Of a stretch of 64,000 nucleotides of DNA, positions 1 to 62,930 are shown piece by piece. This DNA comes from Eubacteriales bacterium (lineage in GTDB: Bacteria; Bacillota; Clostridia; Oscillospirales; SIG627). The stretch covers positions 3,065-67,064 of the forward strand of contig JAZQUE010000074.1 of assembly GCA_045631145.1 (NCBI GenBank). Reading direction: 5' to 3'. The position numbers and the translations under genes are program-made. Position 1 is the stretch's first letter. Each line of letters starts with the position of its first letter. Under the pieces are notes generated by a model, which saw nothing but the letters and a program-made list of their open reading frames with translations, did no database searches and was not told the origin of the DNA.

Positions 1-447
1 ACACCTTCAGATGATAAGAAATACCAACTTGATATAGCAGAAATTTTTATGCGTATCTGCGTGCTTATGCGATATGGATGTCTTGGTTACATTATGCGGC
101 ATGAGGATTACAAGAAAGCTCCACTCCCAAACTTATATGTTCAAATTGCAAGATGGTGTAATCAACCTGGGTTTTATCGGAATTTATCTTTCTGGGAATA
201 TTGCTACAAGAACCAAACATATTGGGAAGAACATACACTAGGGATAAAACACGATAGACTCAAGACCTATGAGGAATTTTTAGAAGACCTCCATAACGGT
301 TATTATAATGACAAGAAGATTTGCCTTACATTAAAGACCTGTCATGAATTCCTGGAAAGTCATAAAGTTCATAAGAAACTCTTCCTCAGTTTCTTTAACT
401 TGTCTTTTAAGAAAATGATAGATCCCAATCTATGGTTACGTAAATAA
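1..447 (+). CDS. hypothetical protein, 5'-truncated by the window edge
   Basis: Frame 1 is open from nt 1 (TPSDDKKYQLDIAEIF precedes the first Met at 49). Stop at 445-447. Only a 13-nt gap to the next + ORF. The Cys/Trp/Tyr-rich tail (RWCNQPGFY, WEYCYKNQTYW) could not be assigned to a family. Confidence 0.5.
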   Translation, partial: TPSDDKKYQLDIAEIFMRICVLMRYGCLGYIMRHEDYKKAPLPNLYVQIARWCNQPGFYRNLSFWEYCYKNQTYWEEHTLGIKHDRLKTYEEFLEDLHNGYYNDKKICLTLKTCHEFLESHKVHKKLFLSFFNLSFKKMIDPNLWLRK

Positions 448-460
448 AAATACTTTAAGT

Positions 461-1141
461 ATGGTAACATTCAGCATTGAAGATTTCTTTTCTAAGAAAT
501 TTGAGAAAGAATCGACTAACATCTTGTTAGAAAGGCCTGCATATTTTTCCGCAATAATGATGGAAAACTATGTGTATCAGCTTATGTGTTATGGTTTGGA
601 AGAATATATTTCATATATGGTTGCTAATCCAAATCAAATAGAAATTACTACTCGTGATATTACTCAACTCAGTAGTATTGATGACTGTACAACAAATATG
701 TGTAGGATAATGCTCGATAATAATAATCAAGGATTTACACTGACCGAGATTGCGACCAATTTACATAGTGATGACAGTTATAAGGATAATCCAGTTGCAC
801 TAACTAAATACGGTGAAAATCAAGTAAAAACTGCTTGTCAAATGGGATTAACTATTTTAAAAAACGAATTATGGTATCTTACAGGAGTTGGTTATGTTAT
901 TAACAACTTACCAGAAAATGTTAGGACAAAATATTTTGCAATTAACCTACTAAGAGACCCATTCTATAGCAAGGTTATACTATCGTTATATGAGAAGGAG
1001 ACAAATTTAAGGGACTTCATGGGTATTCTCTCAGAATCGACTCAAAAAAGAAGATCTTCTAGTTGTCAAAAAGTACTTGCATTTTATATTAAACAATGTC
1101 AAGTTGAAAACATAACTATTAATAACCTTACATTTAAATAA
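461..1141 (+). CDS. hypothetical protein (226 aa), first complete gene of the island operon
   Basis: Uninterrupted ORF. Its stop lies 1 nt before the ATG of the next gene (taatATG at 1139-1145). No motif recognised. Confidence 0.55.
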   Translation: MVTFSIEDFFSKKFEKESTNILLERPAYFSAIMMENYVYQLMCYGLEEYISYMVANPNQIEITTRDITQLSSIDDCTTNMCRIMLDNNNQGFTLTEIATNLHSDDSYKDNPVALTKYGENQVKTACQMGLTILKNELWYLTGVGYVINNLPENVRTKYFAINLLRDPFYSKVILSLYEKETNLRDFMGILSESTQKRRSSSCQKVLAFYIKQCQVENITINNLTFK

Positions 1142-1142
1142 T

Positions 1143-2876
1143 ATGTCTTACACAAATCATTCAAGAAGAACAGGAACTTTGGAACAAGTCATTTGCCGTC
1201 ACGAAGATGGTACTCTTCTTCAAGGAGAAGCTGACATGTATGAAAGAATCATAAGAGATTGTGAGGCAAGTGACTTGCATTGGCATTTGTGGTACGATTT
1301 GTCTCTACCTATTCAATATGCAGGGCAATCAGAAATACAAATAGATTTCTTATTGATTTGTGAAAAGGGTGCCATAATCTTAGAAGTAAAAGGTGGTGGC
1401 ATAGAGGTTGTTAATGGTCGTTATTATTATGTTCGCAATAATGGTCTCTCAAAGCAAATGAGTATTACTCCATTTGAGCAAGCACATAATTACAAATGGG
1501 CATTGCTGAATCATCGTGTGCTTAATGGAGAACAATTATTTGTTGACTATGCAGTTGCTTTTCCTCACCAAGAAATGAACAAAACAAATGAGAATGAATC
1601 TATCGACCAAAGTTTTTGGTTATGGGATAAGCAATTGCATGACAATAAGGATAATTCATTTGCTGATTTTTGTGAGAGTATATTAGATGATGCTAGAGAA
1701 AATTCATCAAGAAGTAGATTTGTACCTGTTCTTACAGAAAAAGAATTAGATGAAGTTGTGCAGGTTCTTTCTCCAACCTTAATAGATAAAAGTCGATATG
1801 CACAATCTACATTGTCAGAAGTGTTAAATTGGCTTCACATACAGAATTTGGATATTCTGGAATCTCTTGAAAGAAACAAACGAATCCTTATAGAAGGGGG
1901 GCCTGGAACAGGAAAAACAACCATGGCTAAAGCTTTTATAAAAAAGCACAAAGGGTTAAAAGGATTGTACTTATGCCAAAATATCTTATTATATGCAAAG
2001 ATAAGAGAGGAGTTAGTACAGGCCGATTTGTATAATTGTGATGTTTATACCTTAAATCGTTATCTTGGCATTATATCTCAGAATGTAGATTCAATGTATG
2101 TTTGGACTCCAAAGCTAGTAAAAGATATAATGCAGAAGACAAATCATAAGTTGTACGACTATGTAATAATAGATGAAGCACAAGACATTGCTGATAAGGG
2201 TATTGACATATTAATTGACAATCTTACTTCTATATCTGGAGACGGATTATCTACTGGAAATTATTTGATCTTCTATGACCTTGAGCAAGGCTACAATAGC
2301 AATTCACGCCATATTGATAATTTTGTGTCTTCATATTTACCTTTTTCTGCGCACTATAAGCTTAACGAAAATAAGCGTGTAATCACAAATAGAAAAATCG
2401 TAAGTTTAGCAAATAAACTTCTATTACAGGAAACAAAAGATGCATATACTGACTTTATCAAAGGCTTGGGTGAAGAATCAATACCTTATTTAAGAACAAC
2501 ATTTGTAAACTGCAATAAAGATTTATTTCGGGCATTCAAATCTGCAGTAAAACAGAGTGATGATATTGAGAGAACTGTAGTACTTGTACACTCTGCATTC
2601 AAACGTGTCATGTATCAAGGTGATAGCATATATGATTTATTATCCGACAAGCCAGGTGTGCATATGTTGGACGAAGATAATGTTGTTAATCCTGACAAGT
2701 CGAGCATACCTTTCACTAGTATTTTAAAATACAAAGGGCTTGAAACCAATAAAGTAATATTGGTAATTCCTGCGTCATGTGCCTCTGTTGACCTAAACAA
2801 CTTCCTATTTGAAATCTATGTTGGGTTTACACGTGCTATGATGGAACTTCAAATAATAATTTATTCAGAGCGTTAA
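1143..2876 (+). CDS. NERD nuclease-related domain fused to an SF1 (UvrD/AAA-like) P-loop ATPase/helicase
   Basis: N-terminal NERD-like D..E.K core (EIQIDFLLICEKGAIILEVKGG). Walker A GGPGTGKTT. Walker B/DEAQ box DYVIIDEAQD. C-terminal UvrD_C-like YVGFTRAMMEL. Confidence 0.8.
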   Translation: MSYTNHSRRTGTLEQVICRHEDGTLLQGEADMYERIIRDCEASDLHWHLWYDLSLPIQYAGQSEIQIDFLLICEKGAIILEVKGGGIEVVNGRYYYVRNNGLSKQMSITPFEQAHNYKWALLNHRVLNGEQLFVDYAVAFPHQEMNKTNENESIDQSFWLWDKQLHDNKDNSFADFCESILDDARENSSRSRFVPVLTEKELDEVVQVLSPTLIDKSRYAQSTLSEVLNWLHIQNLDILESLERNKRILIEGGPGTGKTTMAKAFIKKHKGLKGLYLCQNILLYAKIREELVQADLYNCDVYTLNRYLGIISQNVDSMYVWTPKLVKDIMQKTNHKLYDYVIIDEAQDIADKGIDILIDNLTSISGDGLSTGNYLIFYDLEQGYNSNSRHIDNFVSSYLPFSAHYKLNENKRVITNRKIVSLANKLLLQETKDAYTDFIKGLGEESIPYLRTTFVNCNKDLFRAFKSAVKQSDDIERTVVLVHSAFKRVMYQGDSIYDLLSDKPGVHMLDEDNVVNPDKSSIPFTSILKYKGLETNKVILVIPASCASVDLNNFLFEIYVGFTRAMMELQIIIYSER

Positions 2877-2879
2877 AAT

Positions 2880-5288
2880 ATGGATTTCAAGAAAGCATTA
2901 CAAACATTTGATAGTAATTTTGAGAGTATTCTTGAAATTATGAAACTCAGGAAAGAACCTGAGATGATTGACGCTGTCCGTAATCTATTACTTGTTGTAA
3001 ACCTTATTCTAGAATACTTCATGAATCGAGAAGATGATGAGTTGAAGATTCCTGTAATATATTTCCCAATAAGCCAAGAATACGCTCAAGAATTGTGTGA
3101 AGATTTTGTTACATTGAAACTTGGCTTATATACAAATAAAGATTGGAAAGAGCAATTGTGTTATTTATTATCAAAAAAAGACTTATATATCCCCTCTGAT
3201 ATAAAAACAAAGAAACAACATTTAGCATTACGTGAAAATCATAAGTATGAGAATAAACTCTCTGAAATCCTGTCGCGCTCTAGAAATGAATTCATAGATT
3301 ATGGAAAAACACTAATTTATAGTGAAAAATTACAAAAAGAACAAACCACATATCGTGAAGCTAATAAAGATTACAATAGGAAATCAGTTAATAAATACTG
3401 GTATCTAAGACATGCCATTAACGATTCGAACGATTTCTTACGAGGCGGTTGTCCTCTTTCATTGGTTTATGGGGATAGTGATTTCTTCTACGAACACATT
3501 ATTGAAAATGAAGGAAAAGTGAAAATCCAAAACATAATTGTTTTTCCAACAAAATCTGCAGATGGAAGGTATAGTGAGTTTTGTGCGAACTCATTTCAAA
3601 AACCTTATCTGGATGATTTCATAAGTACTGATTGTGGTTTGAAAAATGTATTTTTCTTTTGTTTCTCTCACAAACCTTATCGTCTTCGTAGACTGTTTGA
3701 CTTCAAACAAAGGATGAAAGAAAGAATACAAATATTTGAAGATGAAGTATATGATTTTATTTCATTCACGTATGAAGAAGCTCTTACTTTAACCAATCAA
3801 AATCCCCCAGAACATCTAGTTGTTAATATAGGTAAGGATAGTAACGAGATACAAGAAGATTACGAGACTCTATTTGATGATATTACAAATGGGTTGGATA
3901 GATATGTGTCTCGTAGAAACGAAATGTCTTTGTGCTTTAGTGATGCATTGAGCAAAGATTACGCAAATAGAATACTAGAAGAAACAGAAGCAGACGAAAA
4001 CTTGATTTCTGAGATTTTAAGATTTAATAGTCGATTATGGAAAGAAGAAGCAGAAGTCGCTCTACAGCATTTTGTCTTCAATAGTAATGTTTTCATTATT
4101 ACTGGCAATGACATAAATGAGCAACTTAAGAATTCTGTCCGTGTATTTCTCCAGCTATATTATAGCGCACAAAAAATTACGTTTGGAACCTTCGGAGATT
4201 TAAGAGGATATCTCTGTAATGGAGAATATCAAAATGAAATCAAGGACAAGAAAATCATTATTATATCATTTAGAAGTGATTATACTGATAGTATTTTTCA
4301 CAAATATCCAAACTCGTTTGATCCATATTGTATTAATGGTGATCAGCAAGTACTTGAGATTGCAAATTATTATTTCTTGCGTCAGTATTATGATTGGGGT
4401 AAATATAATTATGGTAAAGCAATTAGAAAAATCTTAAAATCTGAATTCCGTAATTCTGAGATGAGACCTATACTCGTGGAATATAAGCGTCCAACAAAAC
4501 GATTGCTAGAAGATACACGAGAAGAAGAGAGTGACAGAAACAATAGTCGTACAGTACAGAAAACGAAAGTGACTTATAATAATAATCACTCTCAGGAGTT
4601 TTGGAGGTCCGAATGGATGCTATATAAATTTGGAGATCATCTTAGCATTGCACCTTTATCAGATCTCGTGGATTTATATGAATCAGTTACAGACTTGTCT
4701 ATTCAGCCACTATCATGTCTAGTAAGACGTGTTAATAATCAATTCATTGACAGTCAAAAAGACAAAGACCACAAAAGTGAACGGATGTTCAAAGAGCAAT
4801 CTCTATATGGATTGACTCAGGAAGAGATAGATTCCGATACTCAATTATGGAAAATTCTTTTAGCTAAACGAGTTGAAAAGATGGGATGTAAAAATGTCTA
4901 TGAGGAAGTAATGGACAATTTCAATGAGAGATATAGAGTTAGTTACCATTCATTCAAAAGATGGTTAGAACCTGACTATGGTATTCCAAGAGCCAGAAAA
5001 GTTCAAAAATTCCTTGTGGAAAATTATCTTGGTATTAGACCTCCGTATATTAATCTCATACGTAGAATTAAGGAACGAACAAAAAGTGACACCGAAGGAA
5101 TAACAATTAACATTAGACATTTCCTTAACATTGCACTTTTAAACGATGATTTTAATATTGTTTACAATGCTTTAAGTGATGAAATCCGTGATTTGTTGGA
5201 CATTAATTCTTCAGAAGATGTCGAGAAAATCGTCACTGATGTAAAAGAAATAATAAACTTAGAACCCGTAAAATCTATTTCGCAATGA
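2880..5288 (+). CDS. large hypothetical protein (802 aa) translationally coupled to the downstream helicase
   Basis: Long clean ORF. Starts 3 nt after the previous stop. Its stop overlaps the next start as ATGA (5285-5288). No catalytic motif recognised. It occupies the position taken by DrmE or DruH in known helicase/DUF1998 systems. Confidence 0.7.
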   Translation: MDFKKALQTFDSNFESILEIMKLRKEPEMIDAVRNLLLVVNLILEYFMNREDDELKIPVIYFPISQEYAQELCEDFVTLKLGLYTNKDWKEQLCYLLSKKDLYIPSDIKTKKQHLALRENHKYENKLSEILSRSRNEFIDYGKTLIYSEKLQKEQTTYREANKDYNRKSVNKYWYLRHAINDSNDFLRGGCPLSLVYGDSDFFYEHIIENEGKVKIQNIIVFPTKSADGRYSEFCANSFQKPYLDDFISTDCGLKNVFFFCFSHKPYRLRRLFDFKQRMKERIQIFEDEVYDFISFTYEEALTLTNQNPPEHLVVNIGKDSNEIQEDYETLFDDITNGLDRYVSRRNEMSLCFSDALSKDYANRILEETEADENLISEILRFNSRLWKEEAEVALQHFVFNSNVFIITGNDINEQLKNSVRVFLQLYYSAQKITFGTFGDLRGYLCNGEYQNEIKDKKIIIISFRSDYTDSIFHKYPNSFDPYCINGDQQVLEIANYYFLRQYYDWGKYNYGKAIRKILKSEFRNSEMRPILVEYKRPTKRLLEDTREEESDRNNSRTVQKTKVTYNNNHSQEFWRSEWMLYKFGDHLSIAPLSDLVDLYESVTDLSIQPLSCLVRRVNNQFIDSQKDKDHKSERMFKEQSLYGLTQEEIDSDTQLWKILLAKRVEKMGCKNVYEEVMDNFNERYRVSYHSFKRWLEPDYGIPRARKVQKFLVENYLGIRPPYINLIRRIKERTKSDTEGITINIRHFLNIALLNDDFNIVYNALSDEIRDLLDINSSEDVEKIVTDVKEIINLEPVKSISQ

Positions 5289-8200
5289 TAACAAAAAAAC
5301 GCGATTCTTTAGAGTCTTTCATAAAGGAGCAAATAATAGGTCCTGGCGGCTGCAACTACCAGTATTATATAAAGCGTGAGGATAATAGCGAACGTTTGGA
5401 ACCCGGATATTCATATGGTGAAGTCCTTAATACGACTCCAGGAACCATTTACAGCTCTGCAATACTATTCCCACAGAAAGCAGTCGAAGATAATCGTACA
5501 ATCATAGACAACACTCAAGTTGATGACGAAAATTCGAATGAAGAAGTAGATGATATTCAAAATGTGTTAGAAGAGGAACTATCAGAGGAAAAAAATGTTG
5601 ACCATTCTGAAGATATTGATGCCTTGGGACGAAGATTTCCAAATAAGTTCGGAATATCCTGTTGTTTGGACTCAAATCTCATAAATGAGGGTCTTAAAGT
5701 CACCATATCTGGTAGATATTACAAAGAAATTAAATCTTCAACACTTCTTAGAATTAAGATAGAAGATGTAGAAGGATTTCAAACTTTCATTGAGGATGAT
5801 AAGTTTAAACAACTAATAGGAAAATTAGTTGCTATAGATGGTGATGCAATAAGAATAGTTATGGGCATCAAAGATAAGGAACTTAAAGAAAAAAAGGAAA
5901 GTCTTCGTGAAGTAAACAAACATTTCTGCAAAATTGTTGCTATTAATGATGATGGTTCTTTATGTGATATCTATAATGATGCATCGTTCAAACCTGAATA
6001 TAGATTCTTAAGTGCATATAAGGAGCGTTTATTTGCAAAACTCAACCATTTTGATACAGACAATAATTATACTTCTGCAGGCAGAGAAGAGGAAATAAAA
6101 AATAGAATTTCCAAAGTTGAGAAGTACGAAACATTTATCTCTTATATCGAAGATGTTATATCTGTTTTTGATTCGCAGGGTTTCGGTTATTGGGAAGCTA
6201 TCAACTTTGAGAAATCTATTGATCTTTCTGATATAGACCTTACTTCAAAAAGAGTCTTTAGAGCAGATGATTATCCTTCTTTAAAAGATATAGTCAAAGT
6301 TGAAGTAGGCAATGACACATATTTATCACTTGATGCATGGCTACAAGCCATTAAGAATCAAGGAAAAATTTACCTTAAGGTATTGCTAGTCAATAGTTCT
6401 ACACCTATAACTTCCGGAGATGTAAGATATTTTTCAATTGTAACAAAGAAGGTTAATGAGAGAAGTTTTTTTGGCGTTTCTATTAATATATCAAGTCCTC
6501 ATCTTTTGGAGTATCATAAAGAAAATACTTATGATGCCATCGATGAGGAAGCGAATGCGTTGAGATACTTGTATCGAAATATAAAGGATTTTGGTGTTGG
6601 ACATTTGTGTTCTGTCAATTGGGGAATTAAGAAAGGTGTCATGAATATATGGTCAGAGTTTCTACCAACTGTTGAAACACCTGACGTAGAACCAGTTCCA
6701 AGAAACAAAATGTTGGAGGATATCAGTTCAGATGGGAAAATATATGCAACTCCTTACTTGGAATCTCCCAAGTGCCTTCAATTCAAGTGGCTTTCAGTAT
6801 TTTCTGATGCTAAGGACGAAGATATAGCAAAGGGACTACTAGAATTTGCTGAGACATATAAGCATTGGATAGACAATTTATCAACCAATAATAGTCCAAT
6901 AGCTGAAGAGAATAAGCGCAGATGCAATATGGATTATTTACGTATAAAAAATAACGTTGTTGACTTCCTTTCTGATTCAAAAAAGATGCTTGCGTTCAGA
7001 CTTATGAACGCAGCCATGTTCATGCAATTATGGCATAATACCAATGACAATAAGAATAAAGTTGTTATTGATAAGACTAAGCTTACATTTGATTATTATA
7101 AAAAAGAGGCTGACGACACCACAATATTCAAAGGAATGAATGCTGCTTGGCGTCCATTCCAACTTGCTTTTATACTTCTGAACCTTGACGGCATTTTTCG
7201 AAGAAGTGCTGATACACCTTGGTTGGAAAGGAACGAATTGGTGGATCTTGTGTGGTTCCCTACAGGTGGTGGTAAAACAGAAGCCTATTTGGGTATCATA
7301 GCGCTCACTATTGTAAATAGAAGAAGGACTCAAGGCAAAAAGGGTGAAGGTACAGCTGCATTAATGCGTTATACCTTACGTCTTCTTACAACCCAACAAT
7401 TCCAACGTGCTTTACGACTCATTATGGCATTAGAACAAATAAGATTGTGGAATAACACAACTTATAATCTAGGTAATACGCAGATTTCCATAGGCCTTTA
7501 TGTCGGAAAAGCATCTCTTCCAAATACTAATGAAGATTTGGTTAAGGAAATACAAAATTGGGAACACACACACGGAAGAGTGCCACTAGATACATGTCCA
7601 TGGTGTGGTTCGCTGATTAATCCTATCAGAAAAAATAATGAACAACATTTTCGATGCAGTAATTTTAGATGTACATTTGGTGGTCAAAATACTTATCCCG
7701 TTTGTCTTTGTGATGAGCAAATTTACAAAACTCCTCCTACACTTCTATTTGGTACTGTAGATAAGTTTGCGCAATTAGCTCATAAGGTTGACGAGACAGA
7801 TGTGAAAAAAGACTCTAGAGGTATTTTTGGTATAAACAATGGTTGTCTGCCACCAGATTTGATTATTCAGGATGAGTTACACCTTTTGTTGGGCCCATTG
7901 GGTTCGGCAGTAAGTCTTTATGAGTGTGCTATTGACCAGTTATGTTCACAAAAAGACACAAAGGGAAATGTTATTCGTCCAAAGATCATTTCATCTACCG
8001 CAACTACTAGAAATACATCATTGCAAATAAGAGCTTTATATGATAGAAAAGTTAGCATTTTTCCGAAAAACGGAACCGACTATGACGATTCTTTTTTTGC
8101 ATTTTATAAGCGATTTAAGAATGAGGGAGATGCTGACTGGACATACGTAGCAAAACGAAAATATATGGGTGTGCTTCCTACTGGACGTACACAGATGACT

Positions 8201-9313
8201 ACACAGATTCGTCTTGCTGCAATCTTGTTCGTACATAGAGCGTTATTCGAACAACAGAACTATGAATTGATTAGCAACAAGGACTTTATCAAAGCTGCTG
8301 ATTATTATTACACTGTAATTTCATACTTCAACAGTTTGAAGGAAGTTGGTAAGACAGATGCACAATTCTATCAAGAGTTTACAAAATATACGCGAAGATT
8401 ATACAAGCGTGTTTTGAGATTCTCCCACATGCATGAGTGTCTCTATGTATATAATGATCATTTCCACAAGTCAGAGTTAACAGGTCGATTGACAGGTGAG
8501 GAAGCAGTAAAAGAACTTGCCGATGCTCAGAATCGCAAATGGGACCCCCAAATGCGCTTGCCATATCAAGATGAAGATAATAAGTGGCAAAGAGCGAAGC
8601 TTCCGGCCGATATGGTTCTAGCTACAAACATGATTTCAGTAGGTCTTGATGTGTCAAGATTTAACACAATCATCATGAATTCAATGCCACGAAACATTGC
8701 AGAATACATTCAGGCAAGTTCACGTGTGGCTCGCGAAAAGGAAGGATTGGTAATAACACTTCATAGTCCTTTCAACCAGAGAGATGTATCTCACTTCGAA
8801 AAGTTCAGGGAGTTCCACGAGAAGCTATATTATTATGTTGAACCAATATCTATTACTCCTTTCTCTCCTAAGTCGGTTGAAAGGTTCTTGCCTTTATATC
8901 TTGCTGCAATCATCAGACAGAAATATTCAGGATTGGGCAATCGTAAGGATGCAAGTAACATCAACGACTCACTTGCGACAAAAATTAAGGATGAATTAAA
9001 ACGCTACTTTACAGAGAGAGCTGATAGAAGTGATACTCTTCCATCGCAGGAAGCGGCAATTCTGACGCGTGGAATGTTGGACGTTATTATCAATCAAATT
9101 GATCTAAGTATTGGAATTTGGTTGGATGCTGCTAATAGAATGGGACAAAATTTAGTGTATTACATAACAAAATATGGTAGGCGTAATCCGAACGAGGTAT
9201 CACTATTTGCATCCCCGGAAGATTTTGAAGGAGATATGCCAACAGACAAGTGGCTCGTTCCGAATGCTTTGAGAGTTATTGAACCAGAATCTGTTATTCA
9301 TGTAATTCGTTAA
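5285..9313 (+). CDS. SF2 DExH-box helicase, DISARM DrmA-like / Druantia DruE N-terminal-like
   Basis: Motif I WFPTGGGKTEAYLG. Motif II IIQDELHLL. Motif VI EYIQASSRVAR. Inserted zinc ribbon CPWCGS...CSNFRC. Long non-helicase N-terminal region beginning SLESFIKEQIIGPGG. Confidence 0.85.
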   Translation: MITKKRDSLESFIKEQIIGPGGCNYQYYIKREDNSERLEPGYSYGEVLNTTPGTIYSSAILFPQKAVEDNRTIIDNTQVDDENSNEEVDDIQNVLEEELSEEKNVDHSEDIDALGRRFPNKFGISCCLDSNLINEGLKVTISGRYYKEIKSSTLLRIKIEDVEGFQTFIEDDKFKQLIGKLVAIDGDAIRIVMGIKDKELKEKKESLREVNKHFCKIVAINDDGSLCDIYNDASFKPEYRFLSAYKERLFAKLNHFDTDNNYTSAGREEEIKNRISKVEKYETFISYIEDVISVFDSQGFGYWEAINFEKSIDLSDIDLTSKRVFRADDYPSLKDIVKVEVGNDTYLSLDAWLQAIKNQGKIYLKVLLVNSSTPITSGDVRYFSIVTKKVNERSFFGVSINISSPHLLEYHKENTYDAIDEEANALRYLYRNIKDFGVGHLCSVNWGIKKGVMNIWSEFLPTVETPDVEPVPRNKMLEDISSDGKIYATPYLESPKCLQFKWLSVFSDAKDEDIAKGLLEFAETYKHWIDNLSTNNSPIAEENKRRCNMDYLRIKNNVVDFLSDSKKMLAFRLMNAAMFMQLWHNTNDNKNKVVIDKTKLTFDYYKKEADDTTIFKGMNAAWRPFQLAFILLNLDGIFRRSADTPWLERNELVDLVWFPTGGGKTEAYLGIIALTIVNRRRTQGKKGEGTAALMRYTLRLLTTQQFQRALRLIMALEQIRLWNNTTYNLGNTQISIGLYVGKASLPNTNEDLVKEIQNWEHTHGRVPLDTCPWCGSLINPIRKNNEQHFRCSNFRCTFGGQNTYPVCLCDEQIYKTPPTLLFGTVDKFAQLAHKVDETDVKKDSRGIFGINNGCLPPDLIIQDELHLLLGPLGSAVSLYECAIDQLCSQKDTKGNVIRPKIISSTATTRNTSLQIRALYDRKVSIFPKNGTDYDDSFFAFYKRFKNEGDADWTYVAKRKYMGVLPTGRTQMTTQIRLAAILFVHRALFEQQNYELISNKDFIKAADYYYTVISYFNSLKEVGKTDAQFYQEFTKYTRRLYKRVLRFSHMHECLYVYNDHFHKSELTGRLTGEEAVKELADAQNRKWDPQMRLPYQDEDNKWQRAKLPADMVLATNMISVGLDVSRFNTIIMNSMPRNIAEYIQASSRVAREKEGLVITLHSPFNQRDVSHFEKFREFHEKLYYYVEPISITPFSPKSVERFLPLYLAAIIRQKYSGLGNRKDASNINDSLATKIKDELKRYFTERADRSDTLPSQEAAILTRGMLDVIINQIDLSIGIWLDAANRMGQNLVYYITKYGRRNPNEVSLFASPEDFEGDMPTDKWLVPNALRVIEPESVIHVIR

Positions 9314-9318
9314 TCAAT

Positions 9319-11496
9319 ATGGATATTAATATAGACAAACAATATAACATCAGCTCCAGTAAATTTAAGATGCTATCATCTACTTCTGGAGTAGGCTCGG
9401 TTGTTACAACAAAATGGGGGGGATTCATTATGCCCCTTACGATCAATGAATGGGCGTTTATCCGTGCATTAACGGAAAGTATAAACAATCCAGCAAACTC
9501 GCAATACACTAATAAGGATCATCAGGCTGCTACTGGTGCAGAGATAGTTGATGATGAGAGGTTCATAAAATTCCTTCAGGCAAAAAAGGATTTTGTTAAT
9601 CTGAAATGTTTTGCAGCAATACCTCATGTAGGATTAAATGGTGCGAACTACATAGATTATAAGGAGCATCCGTTATATAAGGAGCAGGAATTAAAAAGCC
9701 GAGAGTTACGTCCCGATATGTTCTATATTCCTGCCGTTGATTTTCCTAAATGGTTTATATCATCAAAGTCGGAATTAAAGCGCATTGACGAATGGTTTGA
9801 CCTTTGGAAGCATGAAGAATTTACCAAGGGCGGACACAAACTGCGTCACAACGATGGGAAGGAGGAGTATTTTGCTCCACCAAGAGATCCTCATGGACCT
9901 ACCTTACGAAAGTTCAAGAATCAATTGAATGACCCTACTATCTACAGACCTCTATCACCAGTATCTTTAGTTCTTATATGTGAGAATGGTCATGCGTCTG
10001 ATATAGACTGGTATAACTATTTTTGTGCTTACCTTGATGGTAAGAAGAAAGAAATGACAAGCGAAGAGGGTTTTGATTTATTTGGATATGCTTGCGATAA
10101 CCATTGTACAGTAAACGTAAACGGAAGGCATAGCTTGAAATGGATAATGAACCGCAATCAATCGGAATCATGGGGTACACTCAAATGCGAATATTGTAAC
10201 AAGAGTGTTTCTTTAGCCGGTATTATGAATCTTAAAGTGTTTTGTCGAGGGGAAAAACCATGGGAACCATACCAGGGACAAAATTGGGTACCTTCTCATG
10301 AAAGGTGTATGAATGGTCACTCACGTTCAGTAATGCAGGTTGCAATGGTAACGAGTAATAGTATTTATTACGCTTCATCACAGAGCAGTCTCTATGTTCC
10401 TCTTTCATGGACATCACAAGGAGGGGTTAAATTACAAGGTGATGCATACGACTATCTTGTAGAATTGCAGAACCGTTATGCAAGAAAACTGACAAGGAAG
10501 TCCGATCTGACAAAGGAAGACTTTATAACATCTTTGGGCTATCTTGTAGATGCTGCTGATGCGGATGGCTATTCAATAGATGACAATGAAGCAGAAGCTA
10601 TCACAATTGAGTTCCTTGGTATATCAAATGAAGTTGACGTGGTTAAAACTTATCGTCTAGAGGAATTTAAGGTATTTGTAAATAATGACAATACACCCGA
10701 AGTTAACAGAAAATTTGAGTTTAACGATATTAACATGCGCGAATTCAAGAATGATTTACTTATAGAGAAGTTCTTGAAAATTAAACAAGTTCCGTTACTT
10801 GCTATAACGAGTACTCAGTTGGGGTTTGGACGTGTGAAGATGCCCTCACCTAAGTTAGTCAACGGACAAGTCGTATACAACAATGAGCAGATTCGTCCAA
10901 TCTATTCAGGGAACATTAATGATGTTAAGGTACTTCCTGCTAATCAGATTTATGGTGAGGGATTGTTTTTTGCGTTTGATATAGATAAAATAAAAGAATG
11001 GAGTGAGACCTATGGTCTTGAGAATTACTACAAGACAACGTTAGAAAATGGTAGCATGGGTGAGTTCCTAGCAAGTGAGATGGGAATTTATGGCCGAGCC
11101 AAATACTATCTCTTGCATACGTTCTCTCACCTAATAATGAAGGAATTAGAGTTCTCATGTGGATATCCTACAGCGAGTCTAAGTGAACGTTTATATTACT
11201 CTGATGAAATGTGTGGTGTACTGATATACACAGCAGATGGAGCTGAAGGCAGTATGGGTGGACTTGTATGGCAAGGACAGCCAGAACTAATTGAAAAAAT
11301 AATTATTTCAGCACTTCAACGTGCTTCTGATTGTTCAGCAGACCCTCTATGCTGGGATAATTCAGATGGTTTGAATAAAGCCGCATGTTTTTCATGTGCG
11401 ATGGTATCAGAAACATCATGCGAACAAGGAAATATGGGGCTTGACCGTAGAGCATTGGTGGATCCAGAGTTTGGATATTTTAAAGATTTGATATAA
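9319..11496 (+). CDS. DUF1998 (MrfA-type zinc-binding) domain protein, DISARM DrmB-like
   Basis: C-terminal signature HTFSHLIMKELE...GVLIYTADGAEGSMGGL...CSADPLCWDN...ACFSCAMVSETSCEQGNMGLDRRAL with four Cys. Additional Cys/His clusters in the N-terminal half. Starts 5 nt after the helicase stop. Confidence 0.85.
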   Translation: MDINIDKQYNISSSKFKMLSSTSGVGSVVTTKWGGFIMPLTINEWAFIRALTESINNPANSQYTNKDHQAATGAEIVDDERFIKFLQAKKDFVNLKCFAAIPHVGLNGANYIDYKEHPLYKEQELKSRELRPDMFYIPAVDFPKWFISSKSELKRIDEWFDLWKHEEFTKGGHKLRHNDGKEEYFAPPRDPHGPTLRKFKNQLNDPTIYRPLSPVSLVLICENGHASDIDWYNYFCAYLDGKKKEMTSEEGFDLFGYACDNHCTVNVNGRHSLKWIMNRNQSESWGTLKCEYCNKSVSLAGIMNLKVFCRGEKPWEPYQGQNWVPSHERCMNGHSRSVMQVAMVTSNSIYYASSQSSLYVPLSWTSQGGVKLQGDAYDYLVELQNRYARKLTRKSDLTKEDFITSLGYLVDAADADGYSIDDNEAEAITIEFLGISNEVDVVKTYRLEEFKVFVNNDNTPEVNRKFEFNDINMREFKNDLLIEKFLKIKQVPLLAITSTQLGFGRVKMPSPKLVNGQVVYNNEQIRPIYSGNINDVKVLPANQIYGEGLFFAFDIDKIKEWSETYGLENYYKTTLENGSMGEFLASEMGIYGRAKYYLLHTFSHLIMKELEFSCGYPTASLSERLYYSDEMCGVLIYTADGAEGSMGGLVWQGQPELIEKIIISALQRASDCSADPLCWDNSDGLNKAACFSCAMVSETSCEQGNMGLDRRALVDPEFGYFKDLI

Positions 11497-11545
11497 AGAG
11501 AAATTTTTCCAGAAATTTAATATGTTCGTGATATTTAATGAATTG

Positions 11546-11581
11546 CTATTATCCGAATCATGCACATGATTCGGATAATAG
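11546..11581 (+). terminator. perfect 15-bp stem hairpin downstream of the island operon
   Basis: ctattatccgaatca (11546-11560), 6-nt loop tgcaca, tgattcggataatag (11567-11581). Lies 50 nt after the DUF1998 stop. There is no strong T-run, so intrinsic-terminator function is an inference. Confidence 0.5.
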
Positions 11582-11767
11582 GTTATAAAATATCGTATTA
11601 AAAAATAACACTATTTGTCTGGAGCTACCGAAAAAAATGGATACTTTCGGACTAATTGTCTAAATATCTACTTGGACTGATAGTATCGGCGAAGCGGTAC
11701 CAAGAAAATGTAGGGTTTGCTCATTTATAAACCTCGTATCTTTGCGCTAAATATAGAGCGTGAAGAT

Positions 11768-12274
11768 ATGGCAAACCCCAATTTAACCATGCCGAAATTA
11801 AAACGTGCATTCCAACTGCTTGCGGCCAATGTCCCGCAACGCACCATTTGCGAACAGCTCCACATGGGACGCGGTGTTCTTTCCAAGTACAAGAAAGCTG
11901 CCGATGAGATGAAACTTTCCTATGAGGATGCCGGTCGCCTGAACAATGAGGAACTCGAAAGCTTCCTCCAGTCTGTAAAATCCGCTCCATGCGGTGTGTC
12001 TGCCCAAAGGAAACTTCTGGACGAACTGATTCCGGATTATGTCTCGGATCTTGCACACAACCGCTATCTGACTGTCCAACGCCTGCATGAGAAGTATCTG
12101 GAGAACCATCCTGACGGTTATGGATATACACAGTTCAAGAAAGCCATCCGTAATTATCAGTATGCACATAACCTGAGCTACCACAACACCTATCTTCCCG
12201 GTGCCGAACTCCAGATGGTACCGCTTCAGCGCTATCGGCATTTTATATCTCTTGAGCAGAAATTGTTGTTGTAA
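11768..12274 (+). pseudogene. IS21-family transposase (IstA-like) N-terminal fragment
   Basis: MANPNLTMPKLKRAFQLLAANVPQRTICEQLHMGRGVLSKY is an HTH-type N-terminus typical of Bacteroidota IS21 transposases. The ORF ends after about 170 aa with no DDE catalytic region and no istB partner. A TAnnTTTG box (tatctttg, 11735-11742) lies upstream. Confidence 0.6.
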
Positions 12275-12435
12275 ATAGTAAAAAAGGTTGTAGATATATA
12301 ACCTTATTGCAAACATTTAGTTGTTGGATGAGGATGAATATCGGTATTGGTAATTTTTTTTCACAATAGAAAACGCAACCCGCAACCCGCAACTTTTTTT
12401 GAAAATCACTTTTTAATGTTTGTGGTGTGGGTAGA

Positions 12436-12471
12436 TACAAAAAAGGCAGGTTTACTTTTGGTGAACCTGCC
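12436..12471 (-). terminator. rho-independent terminator, inferred to be the original mnmE terminator displaced by prophage insertion
   Basis: Read on the minus strand: GGCAGGTT, 11-nt loop, AACCTGCC, then TTTTTTG. Sits about 26 nt downstream of the orphan ...FCIGK-stop remnant at 12497-12514. Confidence 0.7.
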
Positions 12472-12496
12472 TTTGCTGTATATGTTTGTAGGATGC

Positions 12497-12514
12497 TTAT
12501 TTTCCGATGCAAAA
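12497..12514. repeat. prophage attachment-site core, left copy (attL/attR pair with 63026-63043)
   Basis: ttattttccgatgcaaaa versus ttatttcccgatgcaaaa at 63026-63043, 17 of 18 identical. The minus-strand reading is TTT TGC ATC GGR AAA TAA, which encodes F C I G K stop. Confidence 0.75.
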
Positions 12515-12820
12515 TTTCTTTTTAGGGATTTTTTACACCTGTACTATATTGTTATTCAAGCATTTACAATACTTTCGCTCCGCAGATTGTTGTTTTTGAG
12601 CAACAGAATAGCAACAGATTTGTATAAAACAACTTTCCGAGGAGTGTTGCTTGCGGTACAAAGATAAGCAATTTTAATGAGAAACGGGAGCAGTTTCCCG
12701 TCCCGTTTCCTGATACAGTTATTTTTCTCGAATACGCCGCACATTGCGTTCAAATTCTTTTCTGCTGTATTTTATAATGCCCGCAAAGAAAACGCCGTAT
12801 TCGCCGCCATTTCGCTTTGC

Positions 12821-13897
12821 TTATGCAAACCTCTTTGCTGCGGCTATGATTTCGTCAGCATACTGATAGATGTCGTCGATAGAGGCGATTTTGTTGTGGT
12901 GCTCCTTTTTCGCTTCATCGACGAACGTTATACGCTTGTTATTCTCGGAATCGAGATACAGGCGACAAACAGGCTTTCGATTGTTGTTGTCAATGAAGAT
13001 AGCGAAGTAGGTTTGTGCGTCACGGTAGGTAACACGTTCTGCAGGTACACAGCCTCGGAGGATAGCTTTCACGATATAGAACGCTTGCAGCTCCTCGTCC
13101 GTCGTAATAATTTTGCTTGCGGGTGTTTCCTCAACGGGTTCTGCTGCCGCCTGTGGTTCTGTTGCCTGTTCAACCGTCGGAGTGTCATTGTCCTTGATAG
13201 CTGCTTTCAGGCGTTCCGAAATTGTAGCGTTGATATAATTGCTGATTGTCCGCTTCAACAGGACGGTAAACTGTTCGAGGATTTTCTGTGTGAACACCCC
13301 CTCGTACACCTGTTTGCAGAGGAAACGCACAAGATCAGGCGAGGGACTCGCAAACTCTCTTTCGATAACTGCTTTCAGCTCGCCCATGTATTTAAGTTCG
13401 CTCGCTGTGCTCAATATCGCCCCAACATCAAAATAAGACCTGTGGAACTTTTTCAGTTCTTCGATTTGCTCGTCCTTGATGTCGAGCAGGTTCACTTCCA
13501 AGAAAGGTTTCTCATCCATTTTGTTTGGTTCGGCGAGGTCTGTGTAGAACTTGTAGATGATACCGTTTGTCAGGACACCGAACTTTGCTTTGGAAACGTG
13601 GAAGTAGCGGAGGAGTTGATTATCGTGCAGCGTGAGGTTCTGTTGCCAATGCTTGCACTCGATTAAGATTATAGGTTCGCCGTCACGGAGGATTGCGTAG
13701 TCTATTTTCTCGCCTTTCTTTGTGCCGATGTCACAGCACATTTCAGGCAGCACCTCCAATGGGTTGAAAACGTCGTAACCTAACGCACTAATGAACGGCA
13801 TAATGAGTGCCGTTTTCGTCGCCTCCTCGGTTGGGAGGTTTCCTTTCAGGCTTTCGATACGCTCGGACAGCCTCTTGATTGAATCCTTGAAATCCAT
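12821..13897 (-). CDS. HsdR_N-type (type I restriction enzyme R N-terminal-like) PD-(D/E)XK domain protein, prophage-end cargo
   Basis: N-terminus TEEATKTALIMPFISALGYDVFNP...EKIDYAILRDGEPIILIECK matches the HsdR_N nuclease-fold pattern (D...E.K). It is a solitary gene between attL and the lysis genes. Confidence 0.7.
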   Translation of the reverse strand: MDFKDSIKRLSERIESLKGNLPTEEATKTALIMPFISALGYDVFNPLEVLPEMCCDIGTKKGEKIDYAILRDGEPIILIECKHWQQNLTLHDNQLLRYFHVSKAKFGVLTNGIIYKFYTDLAEPNKMDEKPFLEVNLLDIKDEQIEELKKFHRSYFDVGAILSTASELKYMGELKAVIEREFASPSPDLVRFLCKQVYEGVFTQKILEQFTVLLKRTISNYINATISERLKAAIKDNDTPTVEQATEPQAAAEPVEETPASKIITTDEELQAFYIVKAILRGCVPAERVTYRDAQTYFAIFIDNNNRKPVCRLYLDSENNKRITFVDEAKKEHHNKIASIDDIYQYADEIIAAAKRFA

Positions 13898-14199: not shown

Positions 14200-14739
14200 T
14201 CAAAAACTGAAAAGGCTGTATGATACGCCTATACCTATGTACGGGGCAAATTGGGGCGTTTGCGTCAATGTTACCCCATATCCTGCCTGTATGCCGACGC
14301 TCCACCGTTTCGGTTTCTGCTTTATCTGTACAACCTGCCTTGGCTGTGTAATGAACAGGCTGTCGAGTGTCGGTCTGTAACCGCTGACATAGGCTCGGTA
14401 GGTGTCCGTTTCGTATCTTTTCTGCGTGATAGGTATCTGAACCGTTACGCTGTCTTCGGGAACAGTTTTACCGAAATTTTGTACACTATCCTGCAAGTTT
14501 GGAACGGTTTCAGGCATTTTTGGTTCGCTTGCAGGAAGTTTCTCTGTTATAAACCGCAACACAACACTGTCACGTGGCACGGGCTTATAATAAGGTATTG
14601 TGTCGTACACTGTCAGGGTGTCGGTATAAACGCCCAATGACAGCGATTGTTTACCCCTGTGGCATTGATATACGTTCAAGCACAGCAAAACGCCTACAAG
14701 GACGTAAACAAGGAATTTGGTTAGCTCTTTCATACGCAT
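14200..14739 (-). CDS. membrane-anchored lysis-cassette protein (spanin-like candidate)
   Basis: N-terminal hydrophobic segment FLVYVLVGVLLCLNVYQC. C-terminus GIGVSYSLFSF ends in an aromatic residue, as in OM beta-strands. Overlaps the amidase gene end by 10 nt. Confidence 0.45.
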   Translation of the reverse strand: MRMKELTKFLVYVLVGVLLCLNVYQCHRGKQSLSLGVYTDTLTVYDTIPYYKPVPRDSVVLRFITEKLPASEPKMPETVPNLQDSVQNFGKTVPEDSVTVQIPITQKRYETDTYRAYVSGYRPTLDSLFITQPRQVVQIKQKPKRWSVGIQAGYGVTLTQTPQFAPYIGIGVSYSLFSF

Positions 14740-15326
14740 TGTTTCAGATACATAATTATCCCCTCGACGTGAGCTTTGACGATAGCCTCTTTCCCCTCCT
14801 CGGAAATCAGAATAGCCAAATCCTCCTTGTTATCCATAAACAGGTTCTCGGTCAGAACAGCGGGGCAAGATGTCTTTTTCAATATCCAAAAGTTCTCCTC
14901 CCAATCAGCGTCACCGTCCGAGGTGTCTTTACGAAACTTTGTTCCCAACGGCAGGGCTTCCGCTGCGGCAAAATACAGGCAGTTGGCAAGTCTGTCTGAT
15001 TTTGTCGTTCCGACACTTGTATAGGCTGACCAACCACGGGCGGACTTCCATTCTCCACAGCCCGCCGCATTGACGTGTACTGATATGAGAATGACATTAT
15101 CCTTACCATATCGTCCGCAAATCTCATTCACTCGACGGGAACGCTCCGACAGTGCGATGTCCTGTTCCTCGGGAACGATACGCTGCACGTCGTAACCCCT
15201 GTTCTTCAACTCTGCTTCAATACGTCGGACTATTTCTCTCGCCCACGCATACTCACGAAAAGAACCGTCTGGGCTTCGCTTCCCTGCGGTTTCCTGTCCG
15301 TGTCCGTTATCCAATAAAATTTTCAT
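14730..15326 (-). CDS. N-acetylmuramoyl-L-alanine amidase (endolysin)
   Basis: MKILLDNGHGQETAGKRSPDG...ISVHVNAAG is an Amidase_3-like pattern. Adjacent to small membrane proteins. Confidence 0.8.
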   Translation of the reverse strand: MKILLDNGHGQETAGKRSPDGSFREYAWAREIVRRIEAELKNRGYDVQRIVPEEQDIALSERSRRVNEICGRYGKDNVILISVHVNAAGCGEWKSARGWSAYTSVGTTKSDRLANCLYFAAAEALPLGTKFRKDTSDGDADWEENFWILKKTSCPAVLTENLFMDNKEDLAILISEEGKEAIVKAHVEGIIMYLKQCV

Positions 15327-22072: not shown

Positions 22073-22224
22073 TGCTTTGCTTTTCTTAATCGGAGTCTTC
22101 GATAGCCCATACAACAGGCATTTCTACCAACACCTTTCTGATTTGAGAAATCTTTTACCAAGAGGTAAGGTCGTCGCTCTTTTATTCTTTTATATTGCTT
22201 CGAGCCTTTGACAGCCCGCTTGAA

Positions 22225-31480: not shown

Positions 31481-31552
31481 TTGCGGGGGAGGGAATCGAA
31501 CCCTCGACCTTTGGGATATGAGCCCAATGAGCTACCGCTGCTCTACCCCGCT
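31481..31552 (-). tRNA. tRNA-Met (anticodon CAU), initiator-like
   Basis: Minus-strand read AGCGGGGTAGAGCAGCGGTAGCTCATTGGGCTCATATCCCAAAGGTCGAGGGTTCGATTCCCTCCCCCGCAA folds as a cloverleaf. U8 is present. D stem GAGC/GCTC with A11:U24. Anticodon stem ends in GGG/CCC. Anticodon loop CUCAUAU. T loop TTCGATT. 1:72 mismatch (A:A). No encoded CCA. Confidence 0.85.
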
Positions 31553-40275: not shown

Positions 40276-40497
40276 ATGACAAATGAAGAATTGCAGGAGA
40301 TTATGAACAACCCAAACGGTATATCTCCCGAAGATGTCGATAGAATTTGGGACGATTTGAAAGCCCGTGACGCTCGTCGTGAGGCAGAGTTCAACGCCTT
40401 GCCCGAGGAGGAAAGAAAACGCCTCGAAAGAGAGTTTTCCGACCCGTCGCTTGACAGGTTTATAGAAGACCCCTTGGGAGGCGATGATGAAGATTAA
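40276..40497 (+). CDS. small acidic hypothetical protein (73 aa)
   Basis: Clean ORF converging on the gp7-ART gene. Its stop overlaps that gene's stop region. Confidence 0.45.
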   Translation: MTNEELQEIMNNPNGISPEDVDRIWDDLKARDARREAEFNALPEEERKRLEREFSDPSLDRFIEDPLGGDDED

Positions 40498-42182: not shown

Positions 42183-42390
42183 TGTCTGTACGCTGTTTGA
42201 AATGTTCGCACTGTGGGTCTGACAGGAACTTGCACCACCTGCCAAACTCGGTTTTCTCGTCGAGCTTGCAACGGCAAAGTATCAGATGTCCGTCGAGGGC
42301 TTTACTGTGCCAATCATAGCTGTTAGCACAATCCCTACACCTGAACTTCGGCTGCTCCGCCTGTTTCCTGTTCTGAACCCTCTTTGCCAT
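42166..42390 (-). CDS. small zinc-ribbon protein
   Basis: CRDC...WHSK...CRC...CEHF Cys/His pattern. Lies between the portal and gp7 genes. Confidence 0.45.
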   Translation of the reverse strand: MAKRVQNRKQAEQPKFRCRDCANSYDWHSKALDGHLILCRCKLDEKTEFGRWCKFLSDPQCEHFKQRTDNGTIG

Positions 42391-45951: not shown

Positions 45952-46230
45952 TTACAGGTCTTTTGTCAATTCAATGAATTTCGTAAAGAAATCAGGGTTG
46001 CAGCTTGACAGCTCAATGTAGGTTTTGCCGAACTCGGGGAACGTGTGTACGGCGAAATGGCTCTCTGTGAGCAGCCACAACGCTGTATATCCCTGCGGCG
46101 TAAAATGGTGGTCTGTGAAGCACAGGATATTGAACCCCGACTTTTTCAGGGCTTCATCAAATATCTCCCGTATCTTCTGTGGATTCGTTTCCTGTATCCA
46201 CTTTGAATCGTTCCAAATCTTCGCTTGCAT
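45952..46230 (-). CDS. S-adenosylmethionine decarboxylase-like protein (SpeH/class 1 pyruvoyl AdoMetDC-like), short form
   Basis: GYTALWLLTESHFAVHTFPEFGKTYIELSSCN parallels the AdoMetDC core V(V/L)ISESH(L/I)(T/S)IHTWPE...D(I/L)FTC, including the Glu-Ser self-cleavage site. Overlaps the upstream methyltransferase gene by 74 nt. Confidence 0.6.
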   Translation of the reverse strand: MQAKIWNDSKWIQETNPQKIREIFDEALKKSGFNILCFTDHHFTPQGYTALWLLTESHFAVHTFPEFGKTYIELSSCNPDFFTKFIELTKDL

Positions 46231-62838: not shown

Positions 62839-62930
62839 TGATTTTGTTGCTTTTGTTGTCCGTAACCATTCGAGCAACAAAAGTACAACAAAATTGTAAT
62901 AACCTCCAAGTAACTTAAAACAAATTTCAT

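Follow-up and report, generated by a model that had tools for sequence, protein, structure and literature searches.

We report on a six-gene cassette at the left end of a 64,000-nucleotide stretch of DNA (the window; C74:3065-67064, with C74 standing for contig JAZQUE010000074.1 and C74:3065 being window position 1). The cassette encodes, in this order, a radical S-adenosylmethionine (radical-SAM) enzyme, the protein p226, a fusion of a NERD nuclease with a superfamily 1 (SF1) helicase, the protein p800, and the proteins DrmA and DrmB. We are highly confident that it represents a distinct and conserved derivative of the DISARM system, and we read it as a self-contained unit that is horizontally mobile. 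The operon starts 984 nt before window position 1, outside of the window, with the gene for the radical-SAM enzyme. The part of this DISARM-derived system that may represent a new category altogether is its radical-SAM module.

Sequence comparisons identify the two distal gene products of the cassette as a DrmA-type and a DrmB protein. The 1342-aa superfamily 2 (SF2) helicase of the YprA family (5285-9313, plus strand) matches the DrmA model of PADLOC with an E value of 1e-167 and the solved Serratia DrmA protein (PDB 7S9V) with 4e-106; its score of 699 bits against the NCBIfam model DISARM_DrmAS lies under the equivalog cutoff of 950. Helicase motifs I, II and VI are intact (FPTGGGKTEAYLG at residue 658, QDELHLL at 862, and QASSRVAR at 1143), and a Cys4 zinc ribbon (CPWC...CSNFRC) is inserted at residues 771-796. 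The 725-aa DUF1998/MZB protein encoded next to it (9319-11496, plus strand) reaches 262.8 bits with the NCBIfam model DrmB_fam, over the cutoff of 240, is recognized by the PADLOC DrmB model (8e-52) and by Pfam MZB (8e-6), and possesses a C-terminal cluster of four Cys residues (C672, C678, C690, C693). The stop codon of p800 and the start codon of drmA overlap as ATGA, and a gap of 5 nt separates drmA from drmB. A first-pass annotation of the window had already reported the plus-strand open reading frames (ORFs) of 802, 1342 and 725 aa together with the helicase motifs, the zinc ribbon, the terminal cysteines and the spacing of the genes, and all of this proved correct; its view of the pair as DrmA/DrmB-like is borne out by the PADLOC, DrmB_fam and 7S9V matches. 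The DruE, DpdJ and DpdF models of PADLOC produced marginal matches to the generic helicase motifs of DrmA. According to Bell et al. (2025; PMC12458937), helicase and DUF1998 array consistently occupy distinct genes in the DISARM branch of the YprA family alone; the two are split into separate genes here, and hence occur as in the DISARM branch.

The gene sets with which we compared the cassette are DrmD-DrmMI-DrmA-DrmB-DrmC for class 1 DISARM and DrmE-DrmA-DrmB-DrmC-DrmMII for class 2. Neither a PLD protein, nor DrmC, nor a classical methyltransferase was found with PADLOC, Pfam and NCBIfam among the cassette proteins or in the 3 kb upstream, which hold just a phage gene, a helix-turn-helix (HTH) gene and the radical-SAM gene. 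Likewise, neither a methyltransferase nor a PLD protein was found as a recurrent flanking gene across about 120 related loci. The lack of both genes that had been noticed at first pass, and the architecture that had been put forward there as possibly undescribed, are borne out as those of a conserved cassette, as the survey of gene order shows, and the missing genes that might have been expected just outside of the window did not turn up in the upstream region or in the related loci. The earlier statement that the upstream genes do not encode methyltransferases holds for classical enzymes of this type, but the radical-SAM enzyme that heads the operon is the likeliest stand-in for them; it had been missed because the window cuts its gene.

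The function of the missing nuclease is likely taken over by the 577-aa fusion of a NERD (PD-(D/E)xK) nuclease and an SF1 helicase (1143-2876, plus strand). Pfam detects in it NERD (2e-11), AAA_19 and UvrD_C_2, and the PADLOC models RTasNERD-Hel (1e-22) and NERD+UvrD (3e-10) match it as well; its Walker A sequence GGPGTGKT is located at residue 252, and the D...EVK nuclease motif is present. In one human-gut locus (L202:5530-7476), an insertion sequence (IS) that encodes an rve integrase interrupts the gene, of which a NERD fragment of 202 aa is left; the nuclease arm is thus naturally knocked out.

The 802-aa protein p800 (2880-5288, plus strand) lacks any match in Pfam, PADLOC and NCBIfam, in agreement with the earlier observation that it contains no recognizable motif, and a search of the PDB by sequence returned nothing usable for it. 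Its AlphaFold2 (AF2) model, with a predicted local distance difference test (pLDDT) score of 87.4, predicts an SF2-helicase-like double RecA fold followed by a C-terminal beta/helical region. Foldseek relates this model to RIG-I, MDA5, SNF2 and XPB (2e-5 to 1e-3), and VIA-align to DinG (8.7), HsdR (8.4), HrpB (8.3) and Hna (8.0) over residues ~10-305. Walker A and DExx motifs are absent, and the family alignment has neither an acidic nor a GKT column that is invariant. As judged from the model, p800 would thus be a degenerate SF2-helicase core. The suggestion that it might correspond to DrmE or DruH found no support, since no PADLOC model matched p800 or ten distant relatives (E<=0.01); for DrmD (an SNF2 protein) and DrmE, this negative result applies at the level of hidden Markov models (HMMs) and leaves room for remote homology to DrmE. 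Among 1.84 billion proteins, the p800 family is represented by 178 sequences at 50% identity and by 93 clusters at 90% identity, all of about 770-850 aa and none of them named or annotated with a domain. The median identity to the window protein amounts to 26% for p800 vs. 49% for DrmA, and p800 is the fastest-evolving member of the cassette.

That these genes belong together is evident from 79 metagenome loci centered on p800, in which neighbors were counted only on contigs with sufficient room. The gene immediately before p800 encodes the NERD-helicase in 71 of 71 loci, and DrmA (56 of 56) and DrmB (49 of 50) follow downstream; the radical-SAM gene is adjacent in 57 of 61 loci and lies further upstream, behind an inserted gene or an IS, in three of the four exceptions. 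The gene neighborhood of the 802-aa homologues, a survey of which the first-pass annotation had proposed, is consequently near-invariant. Even where p800 has diverged to 26-43% identity, the order radical SAM, optional p226, NERD-helicase, p800, DrmA, DrmB is kept amid unrelated flanks, and the most distant p800 relatives still reside in a NERD-p800-DrmA(-DrmB) arrangement. No family of flanking genes occurs in more than 3 of 39 genome loci; recurrent flanks in a redundant group of human-gut loci comprise a Schlafen/AlbA-type regulator, a vWA protein, a CoiA-like protein and AAA_14/DUF4143 ATPases. About ten studies provide gut metagenomes, bovine and murine, in which near-identical cassette DNA is present. 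One contig from mouse gut is 95-99% identical to window positions 1-11621 and diverges beyond; this sets the right-hand boundary of the transferable unit ~40 nt past a hairpin with a perfect 17-bp stem (11546-11581, plus strand; predicted folding energy -22 kcal/mol) located 3' of drmB. This hairpin, correctly noted at first pass, was missed by a terminator scan downstream of drmB, which found no consensus terminator, because it lacks a T-run. The GC content of the island is 32-39% vs. 45-50% downstream. Contigs from metatranscriptome run X17 span positions 5323-11474 of drmA/drmB and may reflect DNA carry-over, so that we make no claim as to expression.

The gene heading the operon (C74:2081-3511, plus strand, with its 3' end at window positions 1-447) is a 5'-open ORF in the window and was completed from the contig; it encodes a 476-aa protein with the sequence CFRRCPFC, and thus a CxxxCxxC motif, whose cysteines C188, C192 and C195 are 100% conserved. 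Its Pfam radical-SAM score of 22.6 is below the gathering threshold of 29.5. The AF2 model (pLDDT 91.7; predicted template modeling score, 0.87) consists of an N-terminal Rossmann-like domain, a radical-SAM barrel that matches many radical-SAM structures, and a C-terminal helical domain. This is the fold class of two-domain radical-SAM methylases and thiotransferases, with B12-type methylases and MiaB/RimO as the nearest neighbors and MgmA as the top match; a search of the PDB by sequence gave nothing usable. Family-specific conserved motifs are DADLL.NGTRHPN, YHGDFIFAFD and ARW.NQ. Two further cysteines, C355 and C381, are near-invariant in cellular and phage homologues, and C17 is kept in 48% of the cellular and 1% of the phage homologues. 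The homologue alignment contains no conserved N-terminal Cys triad, and the model, with its helical C-terminus, contains no TRAM domain; an identity as a canonical methylthiotransferase (MiaB/RimO/MtaB) was therefore rejected. With more than 5000 matches, the family is much larger than that of p800, and many of its members have a length of about 704 aa.

The latter forms carry a homologue of p226 fused to their C-terminus. In the window, p226 (226 aa; 461-1141, plus strand) has no family match in PADLOC, Pfam and NCBIfam; it is a separate gene in the window's clade and a fused part of the protein in Pbe-type loci. It has diverged to 27% identity where the radical-SAM part is 79% identical, and retains the conserved segment KYGEN..KT..QLGL. 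In locus L025, p226 is fused to a LexA-like Peptidase_S24 domain, and it occupies in this fusion the N-terminal position, which is where the DNA-binding domain is found in LexA-type repressors. Structural look-alikes in the Atlas, winged helix-turn-helix and FokI recognition domains with scores of 0.84-0.86, are weak leads only, and a predicted complex between the radical-SAM protein and p226 received a score of 0.00, which counts neither for nor against an interaction. On balance, we assign p226 with moderate confidence as a DNA-recognition domain and as a candidate partner of the radical-SAM enzyme.

A scan for the radical-SAM gene in one genome per species yielded 79 loci, nearly all of them from gut and rumen Bacteroidales (Prevotella, Bacteroides, Phocaeicola, Paludibacteraceae, Parabacteroides, and Dysgonomonas). 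The gene is directly followed by a DrmAB-type unit in 40 of these loci (5 without NERD, and some cut by contig ends) and by DndF-DndG-DndH in 17 (in Paraprevotella clara with PADLOC values of 5e-90, 8e-35 and E=0, elsewhere by homology). Twelve loci have a p226 fusion together with PbeA, PbeC and small proteins downstream (PADLOC, 2.5e-205 and 1e-74), seven a set consisting of a ParB-like protein, a 138-aa protein, SNF2, a second ParB-like protein and p226 fusions (one of them with Peptidase_S24), and one has p226 and a GmrSD-like enzyme; the remaining two are too short for classification. Pbe-type copies share 79-87% identity with the radical-SAM protein of the window, vs. 47-56% for most DrmAB-type copies, and the cassette types interleave on the radical-SAM tree, for which parsimony demands at least 14 switches among 64 tips. 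The same radical-SAM gene, with or without p226, thus precedes variable restriction-type modules and is therefore a constant, exchangeable module. The sulfurtransferase DndC (TIGR03183) was not found in five genomes with radical-SAM-headed loci, four of which are isolate assemblies. Krishnan, Aravind and colleagues (PMC10853773) described Pbe-type modules that pair with either phosphorothioation genes or cytosine methylases, from which it follows that the modification partner is interchangeable; a radical-SAM partner is not mentioned there. An XRE-type HTH gene of 66 aa (C74:1747-1947) lies upstream of the radical-SAM gene and of the window. Among 67 genome loci, 19 (of the DrmAB, Pbe and other types) have a homologue of it at a distance of up to 900 bp upstream, and so do 10 of 57 metagenome loci; the product of this HTH gene is likely to be a transcriptional regulator of the radical-SAM module.

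The seven loci with ParB-like and SNF2 genes (L025, L046, L047, L061, L065, L074, L090) deserve a separate remark. The recurrent five-gene set in question encodes a ParB-like protein of 337 aa, a 138-aa protein, a ZorD/DpdE-like SNF2 protein of 489 aa, a ParB-like/PD-Lambda-5_A-like protein of 328 aa and, with lengths of 232-812 aa, p226 fusions; it seems to form a further cassette that has not been described.

Homologues of the radical-SAM enzyme are also encoded in 142 viral contigs and 17 annotated phage records, including Bacteroides and Phocaeicola phages. Bacteroides phage BKO1-TP3 and an Oscillospiraceae phage are among those with a homologue. The homologues are 24-41% identical, usually over residues ~1-400, with higher values of 52-55% in two viral contigs and one unannotated record. 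The neighbors in 76 viral loci include a ParB_N-N6/N4 DNA methyltransferase in 36 (mostly as the adjacent gene), a C5 cytosine methylase in 18, a small terminase in 16, and a SAM-synthetase-like protein in 14. By association, this is the usual setting of anti-restriction DNA-modification genes of phages.

The data lend themselves to a model in which DrmA, DrmB, p800 and the NERD-helicase would form one restriction machine. DrmAB would load onto incoming DNA and translocate along it, as in DISARM, and the NERD nuclease would cut it, in the role ascribed to the PLD protein DrmC in DISARM; p800 may serve as a non-catalytic, fast-evolving scaffold, adaptor or sensor. The radical-SAM enzyme would replace DrmMI/DrmMII (and DndABCDE in the sister systems) by marking the host DNA with the aid of SAM and its Fe-S cluster, and p226, where present, would be its exchangeable DNA-recognition domain. 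Candidates for the chemistry of the mark are a C-methylation, either B12-type or Cys-dependent, or another radical adduct. DNA without the mark would be restricted, and phages would carry their radical-SAM homologues beside their own DNA methyltransferases for counter-defense. We consider this whole, a DISARM-derived and prophage-borne cassette with radical-SAM self-marking and restriction of unmarked DNA, to be the best explanation and give it an even chance of being right. The assignment of the radical-SAM enzyme as a DNA self-marking module, taken by itself, we rate at a little below even. More tentative still is the wider proposal that the radical-SAM enzyme and its exchangeable p226 constitute a new kind of DNA self-marking enzyme, which would provide the common modification half of at least five restriction modules (DrmAB/NERD, DndFGH, Pbe, SNF2/ParB-like, and GmrSD-like) in gut Bacteroidales and would have been captured by phages for escape.

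Several observations weigh against a role of the radical-SAM enzyme in marking DNA. To our knowledge, no radical-SAM enzyme acts on DNA apart from spore photoproduct lyase. The fold matches take in non-methylating enzymes such as AprD4, the phage neighborhoods amount to guilt by association only, and the node supports in the radical-SAM tree, from which the switches between cassette types were counted, are weak (0.2-0.77). p226 is missing from most DrmAB-type cassettes, and a separate specificity domain is therefore not required. The distant locus L094 has NERD-p800-DrmA without a radical-SAM gene directly upstream. Furthermore, DndFGH is commonly decoupled from any modification module (PMC10853773), and its presence therefore demands no marking enzyme.

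Part of this evidence speaks for the strongest competing explanation, according to which restriction would be independent of modification, with DNA ends or replication intermediates telling foreign DNA from self. The radical-SAM enzyme would then have another role: it could produce an antiviral nucleotide or small molecule in the manner of viperin, modify RNA or protein like MiaB/RimO, or act as a redox- or SAM-sensing regulator. Prokaryotic viperins are radical-SAM enzymes whose antiviral role does not consist in marking. The same applies to the radical-SAM enzyme OpnA of Ophion (bioRxiv 10.1101/2025.09.30.679545), and the fold neighbors of the cassette enzyme include modifiers of tRNA and protein (MiaB, RimO) as well as the sugar dehydratase AprD4; the frequent decoupling of DndFGH from modification genes and the arrangement in L094 also fit this explanation. 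We regard it as unlikely, while according it a substantial share of probability. Distinctly improbable is a variant of the marking model in which the radical-SAM enzyme would install a sulfur mark, phosphorothioate-like or methylthio, as a one-protein substitute for DndABCDE or SspABCD. The auxiliary cluster that defines methylthiotransferases would need three Cys in an N-terminal UPF0004 domain, and no such triad is conserved in the enzyme; a TRAM domain was not seen either, its best fold match is the B12-type C-methylase MgmA, and no link between DISARM DrmAB and the sensing of phosphorothioates was found in the literature covered.

Two other architectures fare far worse. A canonical DISARM of class 1 or 2, with methyltransferase, DrmC, DrmD or DrmE elsewhere or just outside of the window, could draw on the strong DrmA and DrmB matches and on an N6/N4 DNA methyltransferase 35 kb away in the prophage. 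However, this distant enzyme is encoded by the opposite strand within the replication region of the phage, no methyltransferase or PLD gene lies in the 3 kb upstream, none recurs in more than 100 related loci of differing context, and the mouse-gut contig contains the same cassette before it diverges. Conserved gene order, unrelated flanks and the edge at 11621 therefore led us to reject this highly improbable possibility. Equally slim is the chance of a split Druantia-like system, an option raised at first pass, with DruE cut into a helicase and a DUF1998 gene and the 802-aa protein as DruH analog: a total length of about 2067 aa and a common descent within the YprA family (PMC12458937) are outweighed by a best DruE match of 5e-5 over a 43-residue helicase motif vs. 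1e-167 for DrmA, the failure of DruH and all other Druantia models of PADLOC to match, the split of helicase and DUF1998 as a hallmark of the DISARM branch (PMC12458937), and the lack of a C-terminal PLD or Vsr domain.

The island sits, probably as cargo, in a siphovirus-like prophage of Bacteroidota type, which takes up most of the window (14200-64000). Its genes, all on the minus strand, include those for an endolysin (14730-15326), a tail fibre-like protein (16737-20612), the tape measure protein (26483-30703), an SPP1-type portal akin to those of Porphyromonas and Riemerella phages (42394-43788), the large terminase (43807-45381), a primase/helicase (51640-53493), a DNA helicase (54417-55838) and an integrase (61666-62880); a megablast search of positions 26000-50000 against a phage collection gave no match. 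The cassette is located next to the lysis genes and bracketed by a direct repeat of ~160 bp, the right copy of which lies at 12324-12481 (plus strand) and the left one at C74:1431-1593, outside of the window. The two copies are 83% identical over 164 bp, and an alignment reveals that the repeat is a duplicate of the final ~30 nt of the phage gene upstream and of the hairpin region that follows this gene. A site just beyond the lysis genes and a repeat that duplicates the 3' end of a phage gene match, in position and scar, what accessory cargo would be expected to show. The direct-repeat element seems to be common to many related phages and is likely a recombination point for the exchange of cargo. 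Around this element, at 12181-12600, two gut metagenomes show an increase of about 10- to 100-fold in summed contig depth; the breaks of many contigs fall at 12320-12417. An "IS fragment" reported at first pass behind the operon could not be substantiated: the 185-aa ORF in question (11717-12274, plus strand) resembles the N-terminal part of a transposase by eye only and has no Pfam match.

The MAG (metagenome-assembled genome) from which the contig derives is fragmentary (1.2 Mb in 262 contigs), with C74 as by far its longest contig. The tetranucleotide correlation of C74 with the rest of the MAG is 0.54-0.62 vs. 0.90-0.99 for other contigs of more than 9 kb, and the contig is probably mis-binned. 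As its composition misfits the MAG, the taxonomy of the latter is not to be applied to the cassette. For the same reason, and with Bacteroidales as the true host group, a survey of 401 genomes of the MAG's phylum for p800, with the window's own genome as the sole match, was uninformative.

The window has further features, all encoded on the minus strand. A 358-aa protein between the island and the lysis genes (12821-13897) has an HsdR N-terminal (PD-(D/E)xK) domain only and may be a small defense or nuclease gene product. A 520-aa protein with a C-terminal N6/N4 DNA methyltransferase domain (46157-47719) looks like an orphan methylase of the phage that is unrelated to the cassette, and a 583-aa phage protein adjoining the portal gene (40494-42245) possesses a C-terminal ADP-ribosyltransferase domain (Pfam ART, 2e-11; ADPrib_exo_Tox, 4e-9). 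Rfam detects a c4-2 RNA, which belongs to a family of phage antisense RNAs of the c4 type, immediately upstream of the helicase gene (55814-55891; 48.4 bits) and an RT-17 RNA at 22073-22172 (47.5 bits), both above the gathering score. A tRNA-Met (CAT) gene inside the prophage, at 31481-31552, separates the tape-measure region from the head genes.

In DISARM, Dnd and Pbe alike, self and foreign DNA are presumably distinguished by means of a modification enzyme. Here, a whole set of the corresponding restriction halves, frequent in Bacteroidales of gut and rumen, occurs without any known modifier but each time behind one and the same radical-SAM enzyme. If this enzyme marks DNA, it would introduce a new DNA modification chemistry and the first radical-SAM-based restriction-modification logic; it would explain why these genomes are spared by their own "orphan" DndFGH and Pbe modules, and it would provide a function for many unexplained radical-SAM genes in phage methyltransferase clusters. 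These proposals are directly testable, as every type of cassette is represented in cultured isolates: Parabacteroides segnis BX2 and Dysgonomonas sp. 520 have the DrmAB type, Paraprevotella clara YIT 11840 and Prevotella sp. tc2-28 the DndFGH type, and Bacteroides ndongoniae the Pbe type. Even if the marking of DNA should fail such tests, the NERD-helicase, p800 and DrmAB would stand as a conserved DISARM derivative that is not captured by PADLOC v2, NCBIfam and Pfam, which hold no models for the radical-SAM protein, p226 and p800. Neither a description of the cassette nor a link of the radical-SAM enzyme with DrmAB, DndFGH or Pbe was found in open-access papers and on bioRxiv, subscription journals being outside the scope of this search.

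Among the known systems, DISARM shares with the cassette a DrmA-type helicase and a separate, adjacent DrmB gene in the same order, a large extra protein encoded just upstream, and presumably a restriction-modification-like attack on incoming DNA. The cassette differs from it by the absence of the PLD protein DrmC, of DrmMI/DrmMII methyltransferases and of a DrmD or DrmE detectable by HMMs, by a DrmA under the equivalog cutoff, and by having instead the NERD-SF1 helicase-nuclease, p800, and the radical-SAM enzyme with or without p226. Druantia type III (DruH-DruE) likewise combines a YprA-family helicase, a DUF1998 module and a large partner, whereas the cassette has a helicase that is DrmA-type by HMM, two genes in place of one, no DruH and no C-terminal nuclease domain. 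ARMADA, BRIGADE and TALON (Bell et al., 2025; PMC12458937) are defense systems also built around a YprA/DrmA-like helicase, and TALON resembles the cassette further in having a NERD nuclease; radical-SAM enzymes are nowhere mentioned in that report. ARMADA, however, requires a BrxHII-like helicase and a PglX-like methyltransferase, neither of which was found in the cassette with PADLOC and Pfam, and TALON includes TPR-CSD and TBP genes, and its helicase is fused rather than split, whereas the cassette lacks TPR, CSD and TBP domains (Pfam) and has its NERD domain fused to an SF1 helicase. Class B methyltransferases are characterized by a cobalamin-binding domain of Rossmann type that precedes the radical-SAM domain. 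From the class B (cobalamin-type) radical-SAM methyltransferases and methylthiotransferases (MgmA, TsrM, TokK, MiaB, RimO), the cassette enzyme is set apart by identities of 11-16%, by the lack of a conserved N-terminal Cys triad or TRAM domain, and by a proposed DNA substrate that would be unprecedented for that class. The window cassette contains no Dnd or Pbe proteins (PADLOC, NCBIfam), and its link to the Pbe/CxC-ABC-DndE and DndFGH restriction modules of phosphorothioation systems is the radical-SAM (and p226) module only. With these systems it has in common that restriction-type modules are joined to interchangeable modification modules, and that in Bacteroidales the same radical-SAM gene stands at their head.

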